64,000 bases of DNA from Candidatus Hydrogenedentales bacterium (GTDB taxonomy: Bacteria; Hydrogenedentota; Hydrogenedentia; Hydrogenedentales; GCA-2746185): assembly GCA_038916785.1 (NCBI GenBank), contig JBCLBO010000002.1, positions 21,085-85,084 of the forward strand, read 5' to 3'. The translations under genes and the position numbers were made by a program. Under the pieces are notes generated by a model that searched no databases, had not been told where the DNA came from, and saw only the letters and a program-made list of their open reading frames with translations. Of the stretch, positions 4,485 to 63,016 are shown in pieces. How positions within the stretch are numbered: position 1 is the first letter of the stretch; each line of letters begins with the position of its first letter.

Positions 4485-5435
4485 TCAGCCGGGTCTGCGC
4501 GCCCAGATCTGGCGCTCGATCATGGTCAGATACTCCGACCACGCCTGGCCCTTGGCCTGGGTCTCTTCGATCACGCGGTTGAACGCGTCGGTCTGCGCGT
4601 CGAGATCATCGATCAGCGCAAGCACGATCGCCTCCAGCGTCTTGGGCACCACGGGCGATCCCTGTTCCTGCGTGGCGTGGTGCGAGACGATCATATGCTG
4701 AATCTCGGCGCGCATCCCCTCGGGGAAGTCCTCGATCGCGCGCATCTTCTCGTTCGCCATGTCGAGCCCGATCGCAAGATGCCCCACCAGCTTGCCGACC
4801 GTCGTGTAGTCGATGTACAACCCCTGCGAGAGCTCCTCCGTCTTTCCCAAGTCGTGCACGAAGATGCCCATCAGGAGCAAGTCGCGCTGAAGCGCCGGGA
4901 ACAGCTCGCACATGACCTCGGCCAGCCGCGTCATCTCGTAGCAATGTTGCGCCAGCCCGCCCGGATACGCGTGGTGCCACTTCTTGCCCGCCGCGGCGTG
5001 CGCAAACTTGTCCATGAAAGACACGTCGTGAAGGAACGCGTCCGCCAACTGCCGCAGCCACGGATCCCGAATCGTACCCAGCACGCCGATGAAATTTTGC
5101 ACGCCCGCGCCGGCCGCGTCGGGCACATACATCAGGTCGGCCGAGTCGAAGTCCCCCGCCTTAAGCGGCAGGACCTGATCGACCCGGACCTGCAACCGGC
5201 CCTGATAGTTGCTCACCGTCCCGCGCACGTTCACCACATCGCCCAACTCGAAGCGGCCCGCCAGAGACTCCGCGTTGTTCCACACCACGCCGCCGACTTC
5301 GCCCGTCTTGTCGCGAAACACAAGGCCAAGAAATTTCCCGCCGCTCTGCGTGTTGCGCAGGTCCTTGCGCACGGCCACGTAGTAATCGTTCACCACGTCG
5401 CCCTCTTGCAGAATGTTCACGAACTGCTTCTTCAT
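4485..5435 (-). CDS. OB-fold plus HD-domain phosphohydrolase, YhaM-like 3'-5' exoribonuclease
   Basis: The N-terminal OB-fold pattern (GKFLGLVFRDKTGEVGGVVWNN...GDVVNVRGTVSNYQGRLQVRV) is followed by an HD domain (HHAYPGGLAQHCYEM...GIFVHDLGK). Confidence 0.75.
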   Translation of the reverse strand: MKKQFVNILQEGDVVNDYYVAVRKDLRNTQSGGKFLGLVFRDKTGEVGGVVWNNAESLAGRFELGDVVNVRGTVSNYQGRLQVRVDQVLPLKAGDFDSADLMYVPDAAGAGVQNFIGVLGTIRDPWLRQLADAFLHDVSFMDKFAHAAAGKKWHHAYPGGLAQHCYEMTRLAEVMCELFPALQRDLLLMGIFVHDLGKTEELSQGLYIDYTTVGKLVGHLAIGLDMANEKMRAIEDFPEGMRAEIQHMIVSHHATQEQGSPVVPKTLEAIVLALIDDLDAQTDAFNRVIEETQAKGQAWSEYLTMIERQIWARRPG

Positions 5436-6636: not shown

Positions 6637-7388
6637 GGTGACGCCACCGGACGGCCGTCGCGATACACCACCACCGAATCCCGGCCCGAATGTTTAAACT
6701 TCGAAATGCTCATCACGCGATGGCCCGGATCGCTCTTGCCCTGGTCGGCGAACCTCCGCGCCGCGCCGACCTCGTCAAAAATCTCGATGTTGATGTTGTC
6801 GTAGGCCTCGTAGTTCTGGCGAAGTTCCTCGCCGAGCCGTTTCAATTCCGCTTCGGGCGTGCCCGGTTCCACCGCGATCGCCAGCCCGATCAGCGAGGCG
6901 ACCGCGCCGGGCAGGCTCTTGGCGACCTCCGGGCTGCGGCCCCACTCGCTCACGACCGTATACGCCTCTGCTTCCGAAGAATCGTTCGCGACTTCCCGGC
7001 GTTCCTGAAACGGCGCGGGCTCGCGCAACACGGACTCAAGGAGTTCGCGATTGGGGATCGGCACCGGCGGCAGCCCGGCATTTCCCCCGCCGAAGCGCAA
7101 GCGAAGCGCCTGCCGGAGTTTCTCGTTTTCGTCCTCCAGCGCACGAATCGCGTCGGACTTCTGGACGAGTTCCTCCTGCATTCGCTCGAGCGTATCTTGC
7201 AATTGGACGGCCTCTTTCTGCGATGCCGCAGCGGCGTCCGGAGCAGCCACAGACCCCGGTTTGGCCAGCCGCCCAATCTCGCTTTCCAGCACGTCCAGCG
7301 GACGCCCGGCAGCAGGTGGAGTCTGCGCAAGGGCATTCGCGCCCCAGATGTATACCCCCGCCGCGAGGATACCGCGCACCCGCCTCAT
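6633..7388 (-). CDS. Secreted coiled-coil protein, function unknown
   Basis: N-terminal signal peptide (ILAAGVYIWGANALAQ), then a heptad-like segment (LQDTLERMQEELVQKSDAIRALEDENEKLRQAL). It is translationally coupled to the 5839-6636 gene. Confidence 0.5.
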   Translation of the reverse strand: MRRVRGILAAGVYIWGANALAQTPPAAGRPLDVLESEIGRLAKPGSVAAPDAAAASQKEAVQLQDTLERMQEELVQKSDAIRALEDENEKLRQALRLRFGGGNAGLPPVPIPNRELLESVLREPAPFQERREVANDSSEAEAYTVVSEWGRSPEVAKSLPGAVASLIGLAIAVEPGTPEAELKRLGEELRQNYEAYDNINIEIFDEVGAARRFADQGKSDPGHRVMSISKFKHSGRDSVVVYRDGRPVASP

Positions 7389-12781: not shown

Positions 12782-13398
12782 GCGATCTCCTCACCTCGGT
12801 ATCGAGCAATAAATACAGGCCCAAGCCCCTGAAAAATAGCAGATGGCCCGCACGTGGTCAACGCACGGGCCACCTAAATTTTACCCCGTAAATCCTGTCT
12901 ATGCCCTTCGCGCTTCACCCGAACATAGCCGACGGATTGATCTCAACGTTCGTCATTGCGAGGAGGTCGCGCCGGAATCTCCCATCAAATACTCGATACT
13001 CCGTTCGCGGCCGACGAAGCAATCTCATCAACCGATCGCCCCGCCCCTCGCCGCGCGGCCATCCGCACAATCCCGAATCTAAAGCGTCGCCCTAACAGGA
13101 GTTCAAACTGGTCAACCCTATGCGAAGCCGCATCATAACCCTATGAACTGCAACGTGTTATAACCAAATTGCATCGCGTACCCCTTGTTTCGCACCGCCA
13201 TCCCAGCCTCCAATGGCAACAAAATTCCCAGACCTATAAGGGCCGACTCGGCGGCGGGCCCGCCCGGCGGCGCGGGTGCGCGTGCATCGCGAGCAGGGTC
13301 GTGCTGCATCCCCGGCGGCCGAAAAACCCGCCCTTGGCGGGCCGCCGCCGATCAGTCAGAATGCGTAAAGCAAAGCGGACGGGCTAGACGGAGATCGA

Positions 13399-20428: not shown

Positions 20429-20542
20429 GCCACGGATTTAACGGATTACACGGATCAGGCTTCTTTTGATCTGTGAGTCGCCCGATGATCATCTCTTGAA
20501 AATGTTTGGAGATCGATCCGTTTTATCCATCAAATCCGTGGC
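20429..20542. repeat. Inverted pair of 28-nt triple-ATCCGT arms
   Basis: GCCACGGATTTAACGGATTACACGGATC (20429-20456) and GATCCGTTTTATCCATCAAATCCGTGGC (20515-20542) flank a 58-bp core. The pair lies between the convergent tyrS and anti-sigma genes. Confidence 0.8.
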
Positions 20543-25682: not shown

Positions 25683-26012
25683 GCCACGGATTAGACGGAT
25701 TGAACGGATCAGTCTAATCCCGGGTTCGGGTTGCCGTGTCATTCCCTTGTAAAAAACGGCTCCAATTTTCGGCTACTTTATTTTAAGGGCGTCTAACAAA
25801 CCCCAGCGTTCGTAGCATGGGCGGCTCGCCCATGCGGGTGCATGCCAGCCGTGTCGGGTATTTTGTCAGATGCTCTAAGGAATGATTGATAAATCCGAAC
25901 AGCAATCGTGTCCCTGGGCTTGCGAATGTCGGGGTTTATCAGTGTCCATTGGTGGTCAAAAGCCCTGCATATTCGGGTGAAGTTAATCCGTTCAATCCGT
26001 CTAATCCGTGGC
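25683..26012. repeat. Inverted pair of 28-nt triple-ATCCGT arms enclosing a 274-bp core
   Basis: GCCACGGATTAGACGGATTGAACGGATC (25683-25710) matches the reverse complement of AATCCGTTCAATCCGTCTAATCCGTGGC (25985-12) at 27 of 28 positions; the second arm spans 25985-26012. The core carries a GTAGCATGGGCGG..CGCCCATGCGGG hairpin unit (25812-25838). The right arm overruns the menE stop. Confidence 0.85.
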
Positions 26013-27521
26013 TAATTCCTTTGCTCTTTTCTCGAAATCTCGCCGGGCCGGCTTGAGTCCCGGCTGGGCGAGATCGGCGGGCCAGGGGCGAATCGCGCGC
26101 GGGATTTTATGGCCGGGGAGCGTTACGCGCATATCTTTTTCTACCGCCGCCGCATCCAGCGCGCGGCCTTCTTCCATACGAACGAAGGCCACGGGCCGGC
26201 GGCCCCATTCCGCGTCGTCGACCGGCACGACGATCGCCTCTTCGACGCCTTCGATGTTGCGCAGCGCCTGCTCGATCTCTTCGGGCTGAATATTCTCGCC
26301 GCCGCTGATAAACATGTTGTCGCGCCGGCCGGTCACGTGGAGGTAGCCCGCGTCGTCGAAGCGGCCGAGGTCGCCCGTGCGGAACCAGCCCTCGTCCGTG
26401 AGCGGGCGATGCAGCGAGCCGTCCGGCTGGAGGTAGCCGAGAAAAAGTTGATCCCCGCGCACGAGAATCTCGCCCTCGGAGGAGATCGAGACCGTGCCGT
26501 CCACCAGCGGTTTTCCGGACGACAACAGCCGCTCCATCGCGTCGCCCGGCCGCGTGCAGCAGATCATCGCGGCGGTCTCCGTCATGCCGTAGCTCATCAC
26601 GAGTTTGATCCCGCGTGCCACAGCCTCGCGCACGAGCGGCTCCGGCGTGGGCCCGCCGCCCATCACGACGGCCTTGCACCGCGCGAGCGCGGCGGCGGAT
26701 GCGTCGTCGCGCAGGAGCCGGTAGAGTTGCGTGGCGACGAGCGAGACGTGGGTGGGGGCGTGGCGAATGAGCACGTCCCCCAATTCTTCGCCTTCCTCCG
26801 GCAAGACGATCGCCGCGCTGGCCAGCAGGCACCGGAACACGATGCTCAAGCCGCTGACGTGGTAGAGGGGAAGTGAGAGTAGCCAGCGGCTGCGCGCATC
26901 GAGTTCGAGAAGCCGATTTGCGGCTCTCGCACCCGAGAGCATGTTTCCCGCCGACAACACGGCGGCCTTCGGATCGCCGCTGCTTCCCGAGCTAAACACC
27001 ACGAGCGCAGGGATGTCGCGATGAAGCGTCAGGCTGGAAAGGGCCCGCTCATCTGAGCTCTCGTCGCGGTCCACGACCGGGAGCCGCGGGGGCGTGACTC
27101 GCGCGAGAGAGCCCTTGCCTCCGGTTTTCCGCTTGGCAGCCGTGCGGCGGGCCGCGTGCAGAAGCTGAAGCGCGTGAACAAAACGCGGCGTGGGCCACTC
27201 GGAGTTGACCATCCCCGCCGCGCCCCAGGAGGCCAGCGCCGAAAGCATGTGGAGAAGGGCGCACTCGTCGTCTTCGACAAAGACGACTTCGTATCGGCCC
27301 GGGCCGCAATTGGGGTCGAGGACGTCTTCGGTAAACCCGTCCACCCGGTCCCACATGTCGGCGTAATTTACGCGCTCGCTGGTATGGACGAGCGCGGGCC
27401 GGAGCGGTTCGTTTTCAATCTTGATTAGAGTCAATGAGCGTAGCTCCAGTTTGCACCGCGCTCCACTTCCGGTGTGATGAGATTGCCGCGTCGGGCGCTG
27501 AAGGGTGCGCCCTCTTCGCAA
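26001..27521 (-). CDS. menE: O-succinylbenzoate--CoA ligase (AMP-binding family)
   Basis: AMP-binding motif VFSSGSSGDPK, GWFRTGD, and men-operon context. The start is uncertain: TTG at 27521 or TTG at 27434. Confidence 0.75.
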   Translation of the reverse strand: MRRGRTLQRPTRQSHHTGSGARCKLELRSLTLIKIENEPLRPALVHTSERVNYADMWDRVDGFTEDVLDPNCGPGRYEVVFVEDDECALLHMLSALASWGAAGMVNSEWPTPRFVHALQLLHAARRTAAKRKTGGKGSLARVTPPRLPVVDRDESSDERALSSLTLHRDIPALVVFSSGSSGDPKAAVLSAGNMLSGARAANRLLELDARSRWLLSLPLYHVSGLSIVFRCLLASAAIVLPEEGEELGDVLIRHAPTHVSLVATQLYRLLRDDASAAALARCKAVVMGGGPTPEPLVREAVARGIKLVMSYGMTETAAMICCTRPGDAMERLLSSGKPLVDGTVSISSEGEILVRGDQLFLGYLQPDGSLHRPLTDEGWFRTGDLGRFDDAGYLHVTGRRDNMFISGGENIQPEEIEQALRNIEGVEEAIVVPVDDAEWGRRPVAFVRMEEGRALDAAAVEKDMRVTLPGHKIPRAIRPWPADLAQPGLKPARRDFEKRAKELATD

Positions 27522-27527
27522 AGACGT

Positions 27528-28415
27528 TCAAAACATCCAACCGATCGAGAATAGCACGGTGTAGAGCACGAGCGCAGCGCCGGTGCGCGCGAGGACGGCG
27601 TTGAGTTCGCGCGGGTCGGTGTAGCGGAAGATGGCGAGGATGTTGGGAATCGCGAAGAGGAACGATGCGGCGGCGAGCAGGACCCACTGGTGATCCTTCG
27701 TTTGCGAGGCGAGGTAGGCCGGCACACCGATGGCCGCGGCGACCAGGCACAGGACGTACTCCGCGCGCGCGAAGTTCTTGCCGTAGCGCGCGGCTAGGGT
27801 GTGTTTTCCGGCGGCGCGATCGCCGTCGATGTCGCGCAGGTTGTTGACGGTGAGGATCGCGACCGAAAACAATCCCGGCGCGAAGGAGGCCGCGATCACC
27901 TGCGGCGGCACCTCGAAGGCCATAAGGTAGTAGCTGCCGCAGACGGCGACCGGGCCGAAGAACGCCAGCACAAAGGCCTCGCCCCAGCCGTGGTAGCCGA
28001 GCGGATAGGGCCCGCCGGTGTAGGCGAGCCCACTGGCGATCGAGGCGACGCCGATCAGCAGGTACAGCAGCCCGCCGCGCGACATGATGTAGAGCCCGGG
28101 AATGAAGACCGCGGCAAACGTGAGAATGATCGCGCCCTTCATCACCTGCGGCTTGATGAGGCTCGAGGCCACCGCGCGCGGCGGGCCCATGCGATTGGCG
28201 TCGGTGCCGCGCACGCCGTCGGAGTAGTCGTTGGCGAAGTTCGTCCCGATTTGGATAAGCAGCGCGCCGAGCAGACACGCGACGAATGAAGGCGCGTGAA
28301 AGAAGCCGGCTTCCGCTGCCATCGCCGCCGCGAGGATCACCGGGCATGCGCCTGCGGGGAGGGTTTTGGGCCGAAGGGCGAGCAGCCAGCGATTTTGGGA
28401 GGAGGGATTAGCCAC
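27528..28415 (-). CDS. menA: 1,4-dihydroxy-2-naphthoate polyprenyltransferase (UbiA family)
   Basis: Polytopic membrane protein with NDYSDGVRGTD (NxxxDxxxD). The GTG start lies inside a repeat arm, so the exact start is uncertain. Confidence 0.85.
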   Translation of the reverse strand: MANPSSQNRWLLALRPKTLPAGACPVILAAAMAAEAGFFHAPSFVACLLGALLIQIGTNFANDYSDGVRGTDANRMGPPRAVASSLIKPQVMKGAIILTFAAVFIPGLYIMSRGGLLYLLIGVASIASGLAYTGGPYPLGYHGWGEAFVLAFFGPVAVCGSYYLMAFEVPPQVIAASFAPGLFSVAILTVNNLRDIDGDRAAGKHTLAARYGKNFARAEYVLCLVAAAIGVPAYLASQTKDHQWVLLAAASFLFAIPNILAIFRYTDPRELNAVLARTGAALVLYTVLFSIGWMF

Positions 28416-28520
28416 GGATTAGACGGATAAGTCGGATCAATTACTGGTTGAGATCGAGCCTCTCGGAGTGTGGCGAAGGGCGAAAGATTTTAGCGACGGA
28501 TATATCGGATAGGGCGGATC
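28411..28520. repeat. Two direct triple-ATCCGT arms separated by a degenerate copy of the GxxExxY gene 3' end
   Basis: Arm GCCACGGATTAGACGGATAAGTCGGATC (28411-28438) and arm GCGACGGATATATCGGATAGGGCGGATC (28493-28520). The intervening roughly 55 nt align by eye, at about three-quarters identity, to 28515-28570. That region is the arm plus the last codons of the intact gene. Confidence 0.65.
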
Positions 28521-28522
28521 AG

Positions 28523-28912
28523 TCATGGGTTAAGGTAGAGCCTCTCGAAGTGGGGTGAAGGGCCGAAATTCATGAGTAGGGCAACGTGAATTCCTGTGGC
28601 TTTCAAGTAATTCCGGGTCTGCGAAAAATGTACCTTATCGAATTCCTTCACCGATTTTAGTTCAAGGATGACTTTGTCCTCGACCAAGATATCTGCTCGA
28701 AATTCGCCCACGATTTGGCCCTTAAACAATACCTTGATCGGTGCTTGTTGACTGACGTTCAGACCGGATTGCCTAAGTTCCAGCGCGAGTGCATTTTCGT
28801 ACACCGATTCCAAGAATCCATAGCCCAAGGCATTGTAAACGTCATAAAAGCACTTGATGATCCTGCCGGTCAGCTCTTCATGTTCTAACGCCGTGGACGT
28901 CTCATTCGCCAT
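28523..28912 (-). CDS. GxxExxY-family protein (PD-(D/E)XK-like)
   Basis: 129 aa with an exact GFLESVY (GxxExxY) motif and a downstream EFRADILVEDKVILELK core. It is clearly AT-richer than the flanking men genes. Confidence 0.8.
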   Translation of the reverse strand: MANETSTALEHEELTGRIIKCFYDVYNALGYGFLESVYENALALELRQSGLNVSQQAPIKVLFKGQIVGEFRADILVEDKVILELKSVKEFDKVHFSQTRNYLKATGIHVALLMNFGPSPHFERLYLNP

Positions 28913-28918
28913 GGGACT

Positions 28919-28946
28919 GATCCGTTCTATCCGTCTAATCCGTCGC
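28919..28946. repeat. Triple-ATCCGT arm, inverted partner of 28493-28520
   Basis: GATCCGTTCTATCCGTCTAATCCGTCGC. It shares the variant ending CCGTCGC with the reverse complement of 28493-28520. Confidence 0.75.
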
Positions 28947-28951
28947 CGATC

Positions 28952-29776
28952 TTACGGTAGTTTAGGGAACTTCCCGAAGTTCGGCTTGCGCTTCTCGTTG
29001 TACGCGTTCCGGCCCTCTTGTCCCTCCTGGCTCATGTAGAACAGCCGCGTCGCGTGCCCCGCGAGCTGCTGCAAACCCGCGGCGCCGTCCTCGTCGGCGT
29101 TCATCGCGGCCTTGATGCACGCCAGCGCGATCGGCGAGTGGCCCAGCATCTCGCGACACCAGTGTACGGTCTCTTCTTCGAGCCGCGCGAGCGGCACGAC
29201 GGTGTTGATGAGGCCCATGTCGAGCGCCTGCTGCGCGTCGTATTGACGGCAGAGGAACCAAATTTCGCGCGCCTTCTTCTGGCCGACGATCCGCGCCAGG
29301 TGCGCCGAGCCATAGCCCGCGTCGAAGCTGCCCACGCGCGGGCCCGTCTGTCCGAAGCGCGCGTTGTCCGCCGCGATCGTGAGGTCGCACACCAGGTGCA
29401 ACACATGCCCGCCGCCGATCGCGTAGCCGGCGACCATCGCGACGACCGGTTTCGGACACGCCCGAATCTCGCGCTGGAAATCGAGCACGTTCAGCCGCGG
29501 CGGCGCGTCCCCGTGCAGGTAGCCCGCGTCGCCGCGGACGCCCTGGTCCCCGCCCGAGCAGAAGGCCTCCGGTCCTTCGCCGCACAGGATGACCACGCCG
29601 ATGGTGGTGTCCATCCGCGCCTCGTCGAGCGCGCCGCGCATCTCGTCCACCGTCAGCGGCGTGAACGCGTTGCGCCGATGCGGACGGTTAATCGTGATCT
29701 TCGCGATGCCTTCCGCCTTGTGGTAGTGGATATCCTTGTACTTCTGGCCGCAATCGGCCCATTGGATCGAGGACAT
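28952..29776 (-). CDS. menB: 1,4-dihydroxy-2-naphthoyl-CoA synthase
   Basis: Crotonase-fold MenB hallmarks: [50 protein letters not shown], and the C-terminal ...[11 protein letters not shown]. Confidence 0.95.
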
Positions 29777-30128
29777 GGGGAGGTCTCCTTCGGGGAATGC
29801 GAGATTAAAACACAGATGGACGGGGAAGGGCGAGGCGGCCGGTCGAAGAGATTACTTCGTCGCTACGCTCCTGTTAAGAAAACGAAACCGGCTCACGCGG
29901 AGAAGATAAGGCGCGGAGGGTTTTGGTGGCATGGGCTTCCAGCCCATGCGGGGCGCGCCTCAACCCTTGAAGCACGAGGATCGGTATCCGGCAGGAGGCG
30001 GAGATTCCGGCTCATTCTTCATCGGCTGGAAGCCGATGCCACCAAAGACCGGGTTCACTTTTTCTTGACTCCCGCGGTAGCCGGTGTGGAACTCGCTATG
30101 ATGTTCGCCGTCTTGAGCGAGCGCAGGA

Positions 30129-31766: not shown

Positions 31767-32020
31767 GGCCCGATCATACACGTTCGTTCCTCCAACGGAT
31801 TTGAAACAGTATAGGTGGAGCCGCGTAGAAGTGCGATCCAAATGAAAACTGAAGGAAGTCGGGTGAACGTAGTAGCGTTTGTTAACAGTTTTGCTCGAAG
31901 CCCCCCGCACAAGCGTACGGATTGACATACAGGGCACAGTAATGTACAGTTAGATCGCGGTTGAGAGGGCCTCCTAACGGTTCGCTGGACGCAAGTCCAC
32001 TCGGCTGCATTGAATTCCCC

Positions 32021-42201: not shown

Positions 42202-42672
42202 GTCTCGATCACTCCAATTTCGATCACGCGATTCACGGGCGGCGCGCACGTCGTCCACACCACCATGATCCTTTGCCCCGGAGGGGCATCCGACAGTAGC
42301 CCGCCGTTTCAACGGCGGGTAAGGACCGAGACAATTTCCAGTCCCGTAGGGACGGCTGAACCCGCGATTCCTCCGGCTCAGCCGTCCCTACAGGACTCCA
42401 GATTTTGAAGTGGCCCTGACCCGGCGATGAATCGCCGGGCTATTGTCAATTGTCCCTCCGGGACAATCAAGAATGCGCACTCGGCGCCAGACCAGACCGC
42501 GTAGACAGCGTTTCTTCCTGCGGCATCCCGAAGATCGGACTTGATCGTGACCGACGCCTCCGACACAAAAAGCCACCCCTAAGCTTTCGCCTAGAGGTGG
42601 CGCCTAGTCCTCACTCTATAGATCGTCGGCGATGTCAACGCATGGGCGGGCCGCCCATGCTACGTCGCGGTC

Positions 42673-42700
42673 GATCCGCTCAATCCGTCAAATCCGTGGC
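42673..42700. repeat. Solitary triple-ATCCGT arm
   Basis: GATCCGCTCAATCCGTCAAATCCGTGGC, directly preceded by a GCATGGGCGGGCCGCCCATGCTAC hairpin unit (42640-42663). Confidence 0.75.
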
Positions 42701-62603: not shown

Positions 62604-62796
62604 CTAAATAGCCGGTGGTATACCTGGATCACTTCACTGTGCAGAAATAGATCGCGCTGGGCCCGTTGCGGCCAGATCAGGGTATGTCTTTCGGCGGACC
62701 GGCGGGGAGATTCTTCGCTACCGCTCAGAATGACAAAAGTGAAGGTTCCGGCGTGGAGAACACACCAGTGTCTCAGATTGATCACCGGCTATTTAG
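62604..62796 (-). mobile_element. 193-bp MITE-like element, copy 2 (inverted relative to copy 1)
   Basis: Same TIRs (62604-17 and 62783-96). Reading both sequences, I see no mismatch to the reverse complement of 47999-48191. TA is present at both junctions. Confidence 0.8.
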
Positions 62797-62848: not shown

Positions 62849-62876
62849 GATCCGTCCAATCCGTTAAATCCGTGGC
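62849..62876. repeat. Solitary triple-ATCCGT arm
   Basis: GATCCGTCCAATCCGTTAAATCCGTGGC, 52 nt from MITE copy 2. It is followed by a GAGACTGCTTCGTCGCGATCGCGCTTCTCGGAATGAC unit (62895-62931). Confidence 0.75.
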
Positions 62877-63016
62877 GAAAGGGGGTTACGCGACGAGACT
62901 GCTTCGTCGCGATCGCGCTTCTCGGAATGACGGTCAGCGGTTTGTGCGGACGCGCAAGTTGCTAGGGGCCTACATGATATTCTGAGCGTCCGAATCCGTC
63001 CGGGGAGGTCCCATCC

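Follow-up and report, generated by a model that had tools for sequence, protein, structure and literature searches.

Why would a small, AT-rich gene of the GxxExxY (PDDEXK_3) family lie between menB and menA, inside an operon of conserved genes? We addressed this question in a Candidatus Hydrogenedentales bacterium, using the 64,000-nucleotide stretch that carries the gene (GenBank assembly GCA_038916785.1, contig JBCLBO010000002.1, positions 21,085 to 85,084 of the forward strand), which we call the window; other loci are given L numbers. We found that the gene is bracketed by inverted 28-nt repeat arms and that most GxxExxY genes in a metagenomic sample are likewise flanked by inverted repeats. 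Our best explanation is a two-part element, made up of a widespread hairpin repeat and a GxxExxY gene that lies inside a minority of the hairpins.

The GxxExxY gene and its arms form a cassette between menB and menA

The features of the locus, in gene-strand order, are as follows.

28952 to 29776, minus strand: menB (NF005637, 485 bits), the host gene upstream of the cassette and co-oriented with it
28919 to 28946, minus strand: 5' arm of the cassette, GCGACGGATTAGACGGATAGAACGGATC (reverse complement), ending 6 nt ahead of the ATG
28523 to 28912, minus strand: intact GxxExxY/PDDEXK_3 nuclease gene of 129 aa, assigned by profile matches and motif
28493 to 28520, minus strand: proximal 3' arm, GCGACGGATATATCGGATAGGGCGGATC, beginning 2 nt past the TGA; GCGAC variant
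28439 to 28492, minus strand: spacer and putative leftover of another GxxExxY copy (its final ~13 codons with the stop), assigned by alignment
28411 to 28438, minus strand: distal 3' arm, GCCACGGATTAGACGGATAAGTCGGATC, in the canonical GCCAC form
27528 to 28415, minus strand: menA (NF004751, 312 bits), the host gene downstream of the cassette
26001 to 27521, minus strand: menE (TIGR01923, 312.9 bits, just under the cut-off of 330)

From arm to arm, the cassette is a 454-bp segment (28493-28946). On the gene strand, the menB stop is followed by 5 nt, the 28-nt arm, 6 nt, the gene from ATG to TGA, 2 nt, and the inverted arm. After this proximal 3' arm come 11 nt, 42 nt resembling the end of the gene, and a third arm. 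An earlier note, made from the sequence alone, had placed an AT-richer 129-aa gene between menB and menA on the same strand, within an inverted arm pair. Both observations were borne out, the first by the profile matches and a GC content of 0.48 in the cassette interior versus 0.64 in the flanks, and the second by the sequence of the arms at 28493-28520 and 28919-28946. We found no sigma-70-like promoter and no terminator on the gene strand of the cassette.

Each arm in the window consists of three 9-nt units with the core CGGAT and is 28 nt long in total. Both gene-proximal arms start with GCGAC; GCCAC is the start of every arm in the related locus L001 and of the seven remaining arms in the window. 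The private variant that the earlier note assigned to the gene's arms is therefore common to both proximal arms, but it amounts to one nucleotide. The spacers of the 5' arm have 4/28 mismatches to the distal arm versus 6/28 to the proximal arm, and in the RNA minimum-free-energy fold the 5' arm pairs with the distal 3' arm. The sole available start codon of menA, a GTG (28415-28413), lies in the last bases of the distal arm (GTGGC).

Inverted repeats of one type flank GxxExxY genes in many phyla

We used 80 metagenomic GxxExxY loci found by protein patterns alone, with arms ignored. For each gene, 120 nt of downstream sequence was reverse complemented and matched against 150 nt of upstream sequence, and a score of at least 24 was taken as the threshold. 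By this test, 66% of 71 metagenomic GxxExxY genes were flanked by inverted repeats; among 447 control placements within these loci, the share was 0.9%. The expectation that other GxxExxY genes would also lie between arms was thus confirmed. Exact (CGGATNNNN)x3 arms were present near 16/82 genes of this sample. Nearly all of the flanking repeats that we found have a 9- to 10-nt period and CRCRGAT units (CACGGAT, CACAGAT, CGCGGAT, CGCAGAT, and CGCTGAT were seen). An arm is made up of three to five units of ~9 to 10 nt with the core C-R-C-R-G-A-T, or about one unit per DNA helical turn, and the variable unit positions follow the GC content of the host.

The association also appeared when we began from the repeats. 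Across all loci, 44 of the 74 inverted-repeat-flanked open reading frames (ORFs) of 70 to 260 aa belong to the GxxExxY family, and the rest are mostly antisense or spurious. Neighboring genes are co-oriented with the GxxExxY gene in about 80% of cases (49/60 upstream and 48/59 downstream). Cassettes lie inside operons, such as the men operon here and a hydrogenase operon in L224, and some are arranged in tandem (L182 and L155). The same architecture occurs in finished isolate sequences (Bernardetia and Fusobacteria ZRK30), so it is not an artifact of metagenome binning.

We also scanned one genome per species for arms with the pattern ACGGATTNNACGGATNNNNCGGATC and obtained at least 117 stretches. 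The phyla among the matches listed include Acidobacteriota, Planctomycetota, Verrucomicrobiota, Lentisphaerota, Chloroflexota, Gemmatimonadota, Bacteroidota, Cloacimonadota, Desulfobacterota, and others. These listed matches, to which the following counts refer, contain 249 arm blocks and 75 inverted pairs. The interior lengths of the 75 pairs are bimodal, mostly 3 to 130 nt with a second mode at 374 to 528 nt. The second mode consists mainly of GxxExxY cassettes, with some noncoding interiors and one GIY-YIG gene. Gene-sized interiors hold GxxExxY genes in the window, L001/L002, L016, L048, L052, and L102 and the GIY-YIG gene in L058. All of the 140- to 530-nt interiors have a GC content below that of their flanks, and empty hairpins outnumber filled ones by about 8:1. 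The arm pattern was also present in 15 IMG/VR viral contigs (L120-L134), though GxxExxY was not found in that collection.

Two loci have small GIY-YIG genes that likewise lie within operons, between repeats. The hydrogenase operon of L224 is interrupted twice, by a GxxExxY gene and by a GIY-YIG gene, and the small GIY-YIG gene (4940-5385) lies between copies of CATCTCGACTCCGCTCGATGACCG. In L058, a GIY-YIG gene (6795-7375) lies within CACGGAT arms and an inner GTCGAGC.GAGTCGAGA-type repeat. A second nuclease family, GIY-YIG, may follow the gene-in-hairpin pattern with arms of its own. The host flanks in L058 are duplicated (6135-6165/6765-6795 and 6664-6790/7370-7440) around tandem GxxExxY and then GIY-YIG cassettes, as might be seen if unequal exchange had fused alternative alleles of a single site.

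The arm core is conserved more than arm pairing

In partner arms, the core bases are 95% identical, and the spacers are 59% complementary (46% for unrelated arms). The core is kept more than the pairing, which points to sequence recognition rather than mere pairing. This bears on the explanation that the arms are host hairpins acting at the level of RNA, whether as mRNA stabilizers like repetitive extragenic palindromic (REP) sequences, as terminators, or as RNase III sites, with no part in DNA mobility. The GxxExxY gene would then be an ordinary accessory gene for repair or defense that tolerates or profits from the stems, and its turnover would be due to horizontal transfer and to homologous recombination of the usual kind. 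In favor of this are the predicted pairing of the arms across the ORF, the good folding of the hairpins (z = -4 to -7), the co-orientation of the genes and their neighbors, and the mosaic genome comparison given below, which indicates that recombination is common. The architecture is also nearly identical to that of the intervening sequence in the 23S rRNA of Coxiella burnetii, which is 428 to 444 nt long and has a 28-bp terminal stem, an internal ORF, a lower GC content, and excision by RNase III (PMC4990558). However, the core is conserved beyond what pairing demands, one 7-nt core recurs across many phyla, which a purely structural role leaves unexplained, and the arm association is specific to one gene family. 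The window protein also matched no PADLOC defense model, which speaks against an accessory defense gene. We consider this explanation unlikely.

The likeness to 23S intervening sequences goes far. Both are ~430 to 450 nt long, have terminal inverted repeats of ~28 nt that form a stem around one small ORF, have a lower GC content than the host, are distributed sporadically, and show horizontal transfer; the intervening sequence is tolerated inside an essential transcript, as is the cassette. In contrast, the cassette lies in a protein-coding operon and not in rRNA helix 9, 25, or 45, its ORF encodes a PD-(D/E)XK nuclease and not S23p, and its arms are periodic CRCRGAT units common to many phyla. 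The earlier note had named 23S rRNA intervening sequences as an example of GxxExxY carriage. This example falls away, since the ORF of those sequences belongs to the S23p four-helix bundle family (PMC4990558) and we found no rRNA signature near GxxExxY genes in 229 loci (1.34 Mb) and no rRNA in the window by Rfam. With the wrong location, the wrong ORF family, and no rRNA nearby, the cassette is not a 23S intervening sequence.

The cassette encodes a predicted PD-(D/E)XK nuclease under purifying selection

The window protein matched TIGR04256 (GxxExxY; E 9e-40, 135.7 bits versus a cut-off of 35) and PF13366 (PDDEXK_3; E 7e-40, 136.5 bits versus a cut-off of 22). The latter was its sole Pfam match, and no transposase domain was found by Pfam. 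Its motif reads G31-F-L-E34-S-V-Y37. In an alignment of 27 family members, there is no variation at E34, Y37, D73, and E83, and at least 90% of the sequences keep G31 and K85. Judged from this alignment, the conserved E...D...ExK residues are the predicted catalytic set of a PD-(D/E)XK nuclease (D73 plus E83-x-K85), and the set is intact.

The AlphaFold2 model is confident, with a predicted local distance difference test (pLDDT) score of 93.4. Foldseek matched it to lambda exonuclease and the Cas4 protein SSO0001 (E 1e-4; query-normalized template modeling [TM] score, TMq, 0.53 to 0.59) and to archaeal Hjc resolvases (TM ~0.46), and tRNA-splicing endonucleases were also among the top PDB structure matches. 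Overall TM scores were 0.45 to 0.59, with no close solved relative, and no PDB sequence homologue was found at E <= 1. The PD-(D/E)XK nuclease fold that had been expected is confirmed by this structure prediction. Between the GxxExxY genes of the window and L001, nonsynonymous divergence (dN) is 0.15 and the proportion of synonymous differences (pS) is 0.88, so that synonymous sites are saturated. By this measure, the protein is under purifying selection with its putative catalytic set intact.

The gene is polymorphic at the menB-menA site, and its occupant has been replaced

The names of menA homologues place the organism in Candidatus Hydrogenedentota. The GxxExxY cassette with arms follows menB in L001/L002, L048, L221/L222, and L223. 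The gene is not present after menB in L215, L217/L218, and L219/L220, in which the spacer is 158 to 169 nt and contains a hairpin built on the same plan. Presence and absence of the gene are thus polymorphic at one defined site in relatives. An empty site, for which the earlier note suggested looking, exists insofar as L215, L217, and L219 are gene-less, but they have hairpins there and not clean junctions. We found no relative with the gene at this site but without arms, as L001, L048, L221, and L223 all have arms. The hairpins of the gene-less relatives are built of other unit variants (CACCGAT, or CACAGAT/CTGAT nested with a CACGGAT arm). Their layout in L217 (2835-2965) and L219 (2845-2970), two forward arms and one reverse arm, nested, is a mirror image of that in the window, where a single forward arm goes with two reverse ones.

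The identity between the window and L001 is 98 to 100% across most of a 20-kb region. In this comparison, menB and menA are ~95% identical, with synonymous divergence (dS) of 0.16 to 0.20, and the cassette is 70% identical. The divergent tract takes in the first ~200 nt of menA (82%, then 98%) and the last ~100 nt of menB (87%, sliding window). The two gene-less arm-bounded elements of the window are 96 to 100% identical to those of L001. A cassette at 70% identity against a genome-wide background of ~99% indicates that the occupant of the site was replaced, together with short flanks, by a distant allele.

The comparison with L001 is mosaic beyond this tract as well. Between 18000 and 38000, most of which is 98 to 100% identical, sharp patches of 45 to 87% identity occur at 22850-21965 (a gene with a von Willebrand factor domain) and at 31154-30555 (a peptide-binding protein gene). 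Between menB and the gene for the binding protein, L001 and L215 contain an acetyltransferase gene and an ORF of ~200 aa, neither of which is in the window (29777-30128).

A second gene tail lies beside the cassette

Positions 28408-28481 align with 28490-28563 at 77% identity over 74 nt. When the arm is excluded, 28440-28481 (within 28439-28492) aligns at 34/41 positions to the last 41 nt of the resident gene. This alignment scores 25, compared with 8.1±1.2 in shuffled sequences (maximum, 15), and the score was reached by 0/2000 shuffles and by 0/1972 genomic 54-mers. The further arm and degraded gene tail that the earlier note described beside the cassette are therefore real. The top match of the remnant is the window's own gene (25), and it scores no more than 16 against every other locus. 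We also compared relatives' alleles as candidate sources of the remnant, and none beat the window's own gene.

From these alignments, the remnant and the distal arm would best be read as the leftover of a second tandem or earlier copy, from a related allele. The remnant could instead have arisen by a local 82-bp tandem duplication of gene tail plus arm, through replication slippage between arms, followed by divergence; neither a second cassette nor repeated insertion would then lie behind it. This would fit with the remnant being closest to the tail of the adjacent resident gene and with the two segments being collinear copies 82 nt apart. However, the copies differ by 17 to 23%, while the host background differs from L001 by 0 to 5%, and the duplication is not present in L001, L048, or L221. 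Any duplication must thus be of some age and have come in along with the tract. Moreover, full tandem cassettes occur elsewhere (L182, L155, and L058), so that a decayed tandem copy is an equally simple explanation. We regard a local duplication as very unlikely. The remnant would be what decay has left of a tandem copy or else an early, partial duplication imported with the divergent tract.

Most arms bound hairpins without a gene

The window contains nine copies of (CGGATNNNN)x3 with at most one mismatch, versus 0.03 expected. Three are at the cassette, four form two further inverted pairs without a gene, and two are solo. The arms away from the cassette are as follows.

20429 to 20542, no strand assigned: gene-less hairpin of the cassette arm family, with a 58-nt interior
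25683 to 26012, no strand assigned: gene-less element with a near-perfect arm pair (1 mismatch at the inner end) and a ~270-nt noncoding interior
42673 to 42700, minus strand: solo arm of the cassette arm family
62849 to 62876, minus strand: solo arm of the cassette arm family

The menE stop codon, TAG, comes from an arm of the 25683-26012 element. Rfam gave no match to either arms or hairpins, whether at gathering thresholds or at E <= 1, and we found no consistent direct repeats or target-site duplications flanking the arms at the sites inspected. Two ideas about the interiors were rejected. A shared interior among the gene-less elements was one, as those at 25.7 kb, 42.6 kb, and 62.8 kb align in their arms alone. 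The other was that empty hairpins are decayed genes, since 42 empty elements had no significant GxxExxY remnant.

Contrary to what the earlier note had implied, the arms are thus not specific to the GxxExxY cassette and are instead a genome-wide, cross-phylum hairpin repeat that is mostly gene-less. As the arms mostly bound gene-less hairpins, "target" is as apt a term for them as "vehicle."

This distribution also calls to mind REP sequences, their hairpin-forming doublets (REPINs), and the REP-associated tyrosine transposases (RAYTs). By this analogy, the GxxExxY protein, possibly domesticated, would disperse or maintain gene-less hairpins in trans, and the hairpins would be the replicating units. 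The gene would lie between copies of its own substrate, like a RAYT gene between REPs. In both systems a nuclease-type gene lies between inverted short repeats that are also dispersed as gene-less intergenic doublets, which here are the ~8:1 majority. It would also fit that the arms are homogeneous within a lineage while their spacers differ between phyla, that the protein is under purifying selection, and that the noncoding arm-bounded elements are stably inherited. On the other hand, RAYTs are HUH/Y1 transposases that are single copy and vertically inherited, and REPs are lineage specific. The cassette protein is of the PD-(D/E)XK type, its alleles are swapped at one site, and the core of its repeat is conserved across phyla; the gene also appears to be multicopy, judging from tandem copies, from several genes per locus, and from what is known of the family. 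Since its enzyme is of a type other than the HUH transposases, the cassette does not qualify as a RAYT system, and we judge that a REPIN-like system is improbable.

Several further observations concern the gene-less arms and their surroundings. The 25683-26012 element corresponds to L001 12838-13270 and is 98 to 99% identical between the window and L001/L002, a conservation above that of synonymous sites in adjacent genes. One hairpin within the element reads GCATGGGCGGCTCGCCCATGC and has a similar counterpart at 42640-42660; the element may be a structured RNA. In L001, the element downstream of menE carries a 106-nt insertion (~12985-13090) that is not in the window or L002. This insertion has a 9-nt direct repeat, AGCATCTGA, on both sides and carries a GAGATTGCTTCGTCGC...CTCGCAATGAC motif. 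Akin motifs occur in the window at 62707-62735 and 62893-62932, beside the solo arm at 62.8 kb, and these repeats look like a second, recently mobile repeat family. Upstream of the solo arm at 42673 are two Acido-Lenti-1 RNAs (Rfam RF01687) on opposite strands (42274-42319, minus; 42420-42465, plus), with a long hairpin between them (~42340-42400). Finally, a DUF3800-VI RNA (Rfam RF02915, 51.7 bits) at 31958-32007 (plus strand) adjoins a DUF3800 gene.

A model for hairpin-armed nuclease cassettes

We now return to the two-part element as our best explanation of how the cassette is built, of the family-wide link between gene and arms, and of the polymorphism and replacement at the menB-menA site. 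In this model, gene-bearing copies would be the autonomous members, and gene-less hairpins would be nonautonomous members or targets. The cassette, with no evident promoter of its own, would be transcribed by read-through from the host operon, which would account for the strong co-orientation with neighbors. In the transcript, the arms would pair into a ~28-bp stem around the ORF, 6 nt from the start codon, which could limit translation and, by analogy with 23S rRNA intervening sequences, could allow RNase III-type processing. The nuclease would recognize the arm units and break DNA at arm-bounded sites. Gene-conversion repair, with the arms (and between strains also the host flanks) serving as homology, would then copy or replace the cassette. 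Thus, hairpin-armed nuclease cassettes, autonomous and nonautonomous, would spread and turn over by nuclease-stimulated gene conversion and be expressed by operon read-through. We hold this account tentatively, with confidence somewhat short of even. A broader claim is that GxxExxY genes and CRCRGAT hairpins make up a so far unrecognized, cross-phylum class of mobile elements in which the 129-aa nuclease, as the sole protein, recognizes the arms and drives copying of the cassette, and of gene-less hairpins, into other arm-bounded or new sites; this is possible, but we lean against it.

A further close parallel is found among free-standing homing endonuclease genes. These include the seg and mob genes of phage T4, and I-Ssp6803I is a homing enzyme of the PD-(D/E)XK type. 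As with those genes, a small nuclease gene is inserted between conserved genes, is present or absent at a fixed site, and relies for its expression on transcripts of the host, a hairpin lying close to the start codon. The divergence that extends into the flanks resembles co-conversion, although the window and L001 are mosaic elsewhere too. Unlike in the cassette system, however, the homing genes have no counterpart to the periodic inverted arms or the many gene-less hairpins.

Pairs of autonomous transposons and miniature inverted-repeat transposable elements (MITEs) are alike in having terminal inverted repeats with internal subrepeats, a coding minority, and a short noncoding majority. They differ in that the cassette has no DDE, HUH, or serine/tyrosine recombinase and no consistent target-site duplication, and in that the noncoding copies have interiors related neither to one another nor to the gene. 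As it lacks both a transposase and a target duplication, the cassette does not count as a classical transposon with terminal inverted repeats.

Several points weigh against the conversion model. We found no near-identical copies and no clear target-site duplications, and so there is no direct sign of recent movement. The hairpins of the gene-less relatives use other units and are therefore not simply "uncut targets." Ordinary homologous import of a foreign allele would produce such divergence of the flanks as well, and the window and L001 are mosaic elsewhere too. The arm unit type is only weakly related to protein similarity, a relation confounded by GC content, and the interiors of empty hairpins are unrelated to each other, with no detectable gene remnants. 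Neither the IMG/VR contigs nor GenBank phages yielded a GxxExxY gene, and the family occurs in only 8/72,556 plasmid records, which makes phage or plasmid carriage unlikely. The protein is strongly conserved across phyla (mean column identity, 58%), which could reflect a host-beneficial function. Lastly, the nuclease activity and its target are predicted, and we infer that the nuclease acts on the arms, that the breaks drive turnover, and that the stem has a role at the level of RNA.

Significance for the GxxExxY family

A survey of the PD-(D/E)XK superfamily lists the function of GxxExxY/PDDEXK_3 as "unknown" (PMC3424549). Our search of 8 million papers found nothing on the context or function of GxxExxY, PF13366, or TIGR04256 or on the arm sequences. 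The earlier note's view that a hairpin-arm vehicle for these genes is not established agrees with this, as we found no description of one. Together, our data suggest an undescribed selfish nuclease-gene cassette.

Most family members sit in a conserved periodic hairpin, and the arm units are the suggested substrate. The finding links rRNA intervening sequences, REPIN-like hairpins, and free-standing homing nucleases, which have so far been treated apart. It accounts for small AT-rich genes that interrupt operons, for spurious peptide tails encoded by arms, and for host genes with repeat-supplied start or stop codons, such as menA and menE here. As a guess, it may also lie behind breaks in assemblies at GxxExxY loci; many contigs with such loci span only 1 to 2 kb. 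If the broader claim of a class of mobile elements is true, the ~450-bp cassette would be among the smallest autonomous mobile elements, and a function would be assigned to a family of about 30,000 protein clusters (29,740 at 50% identity).

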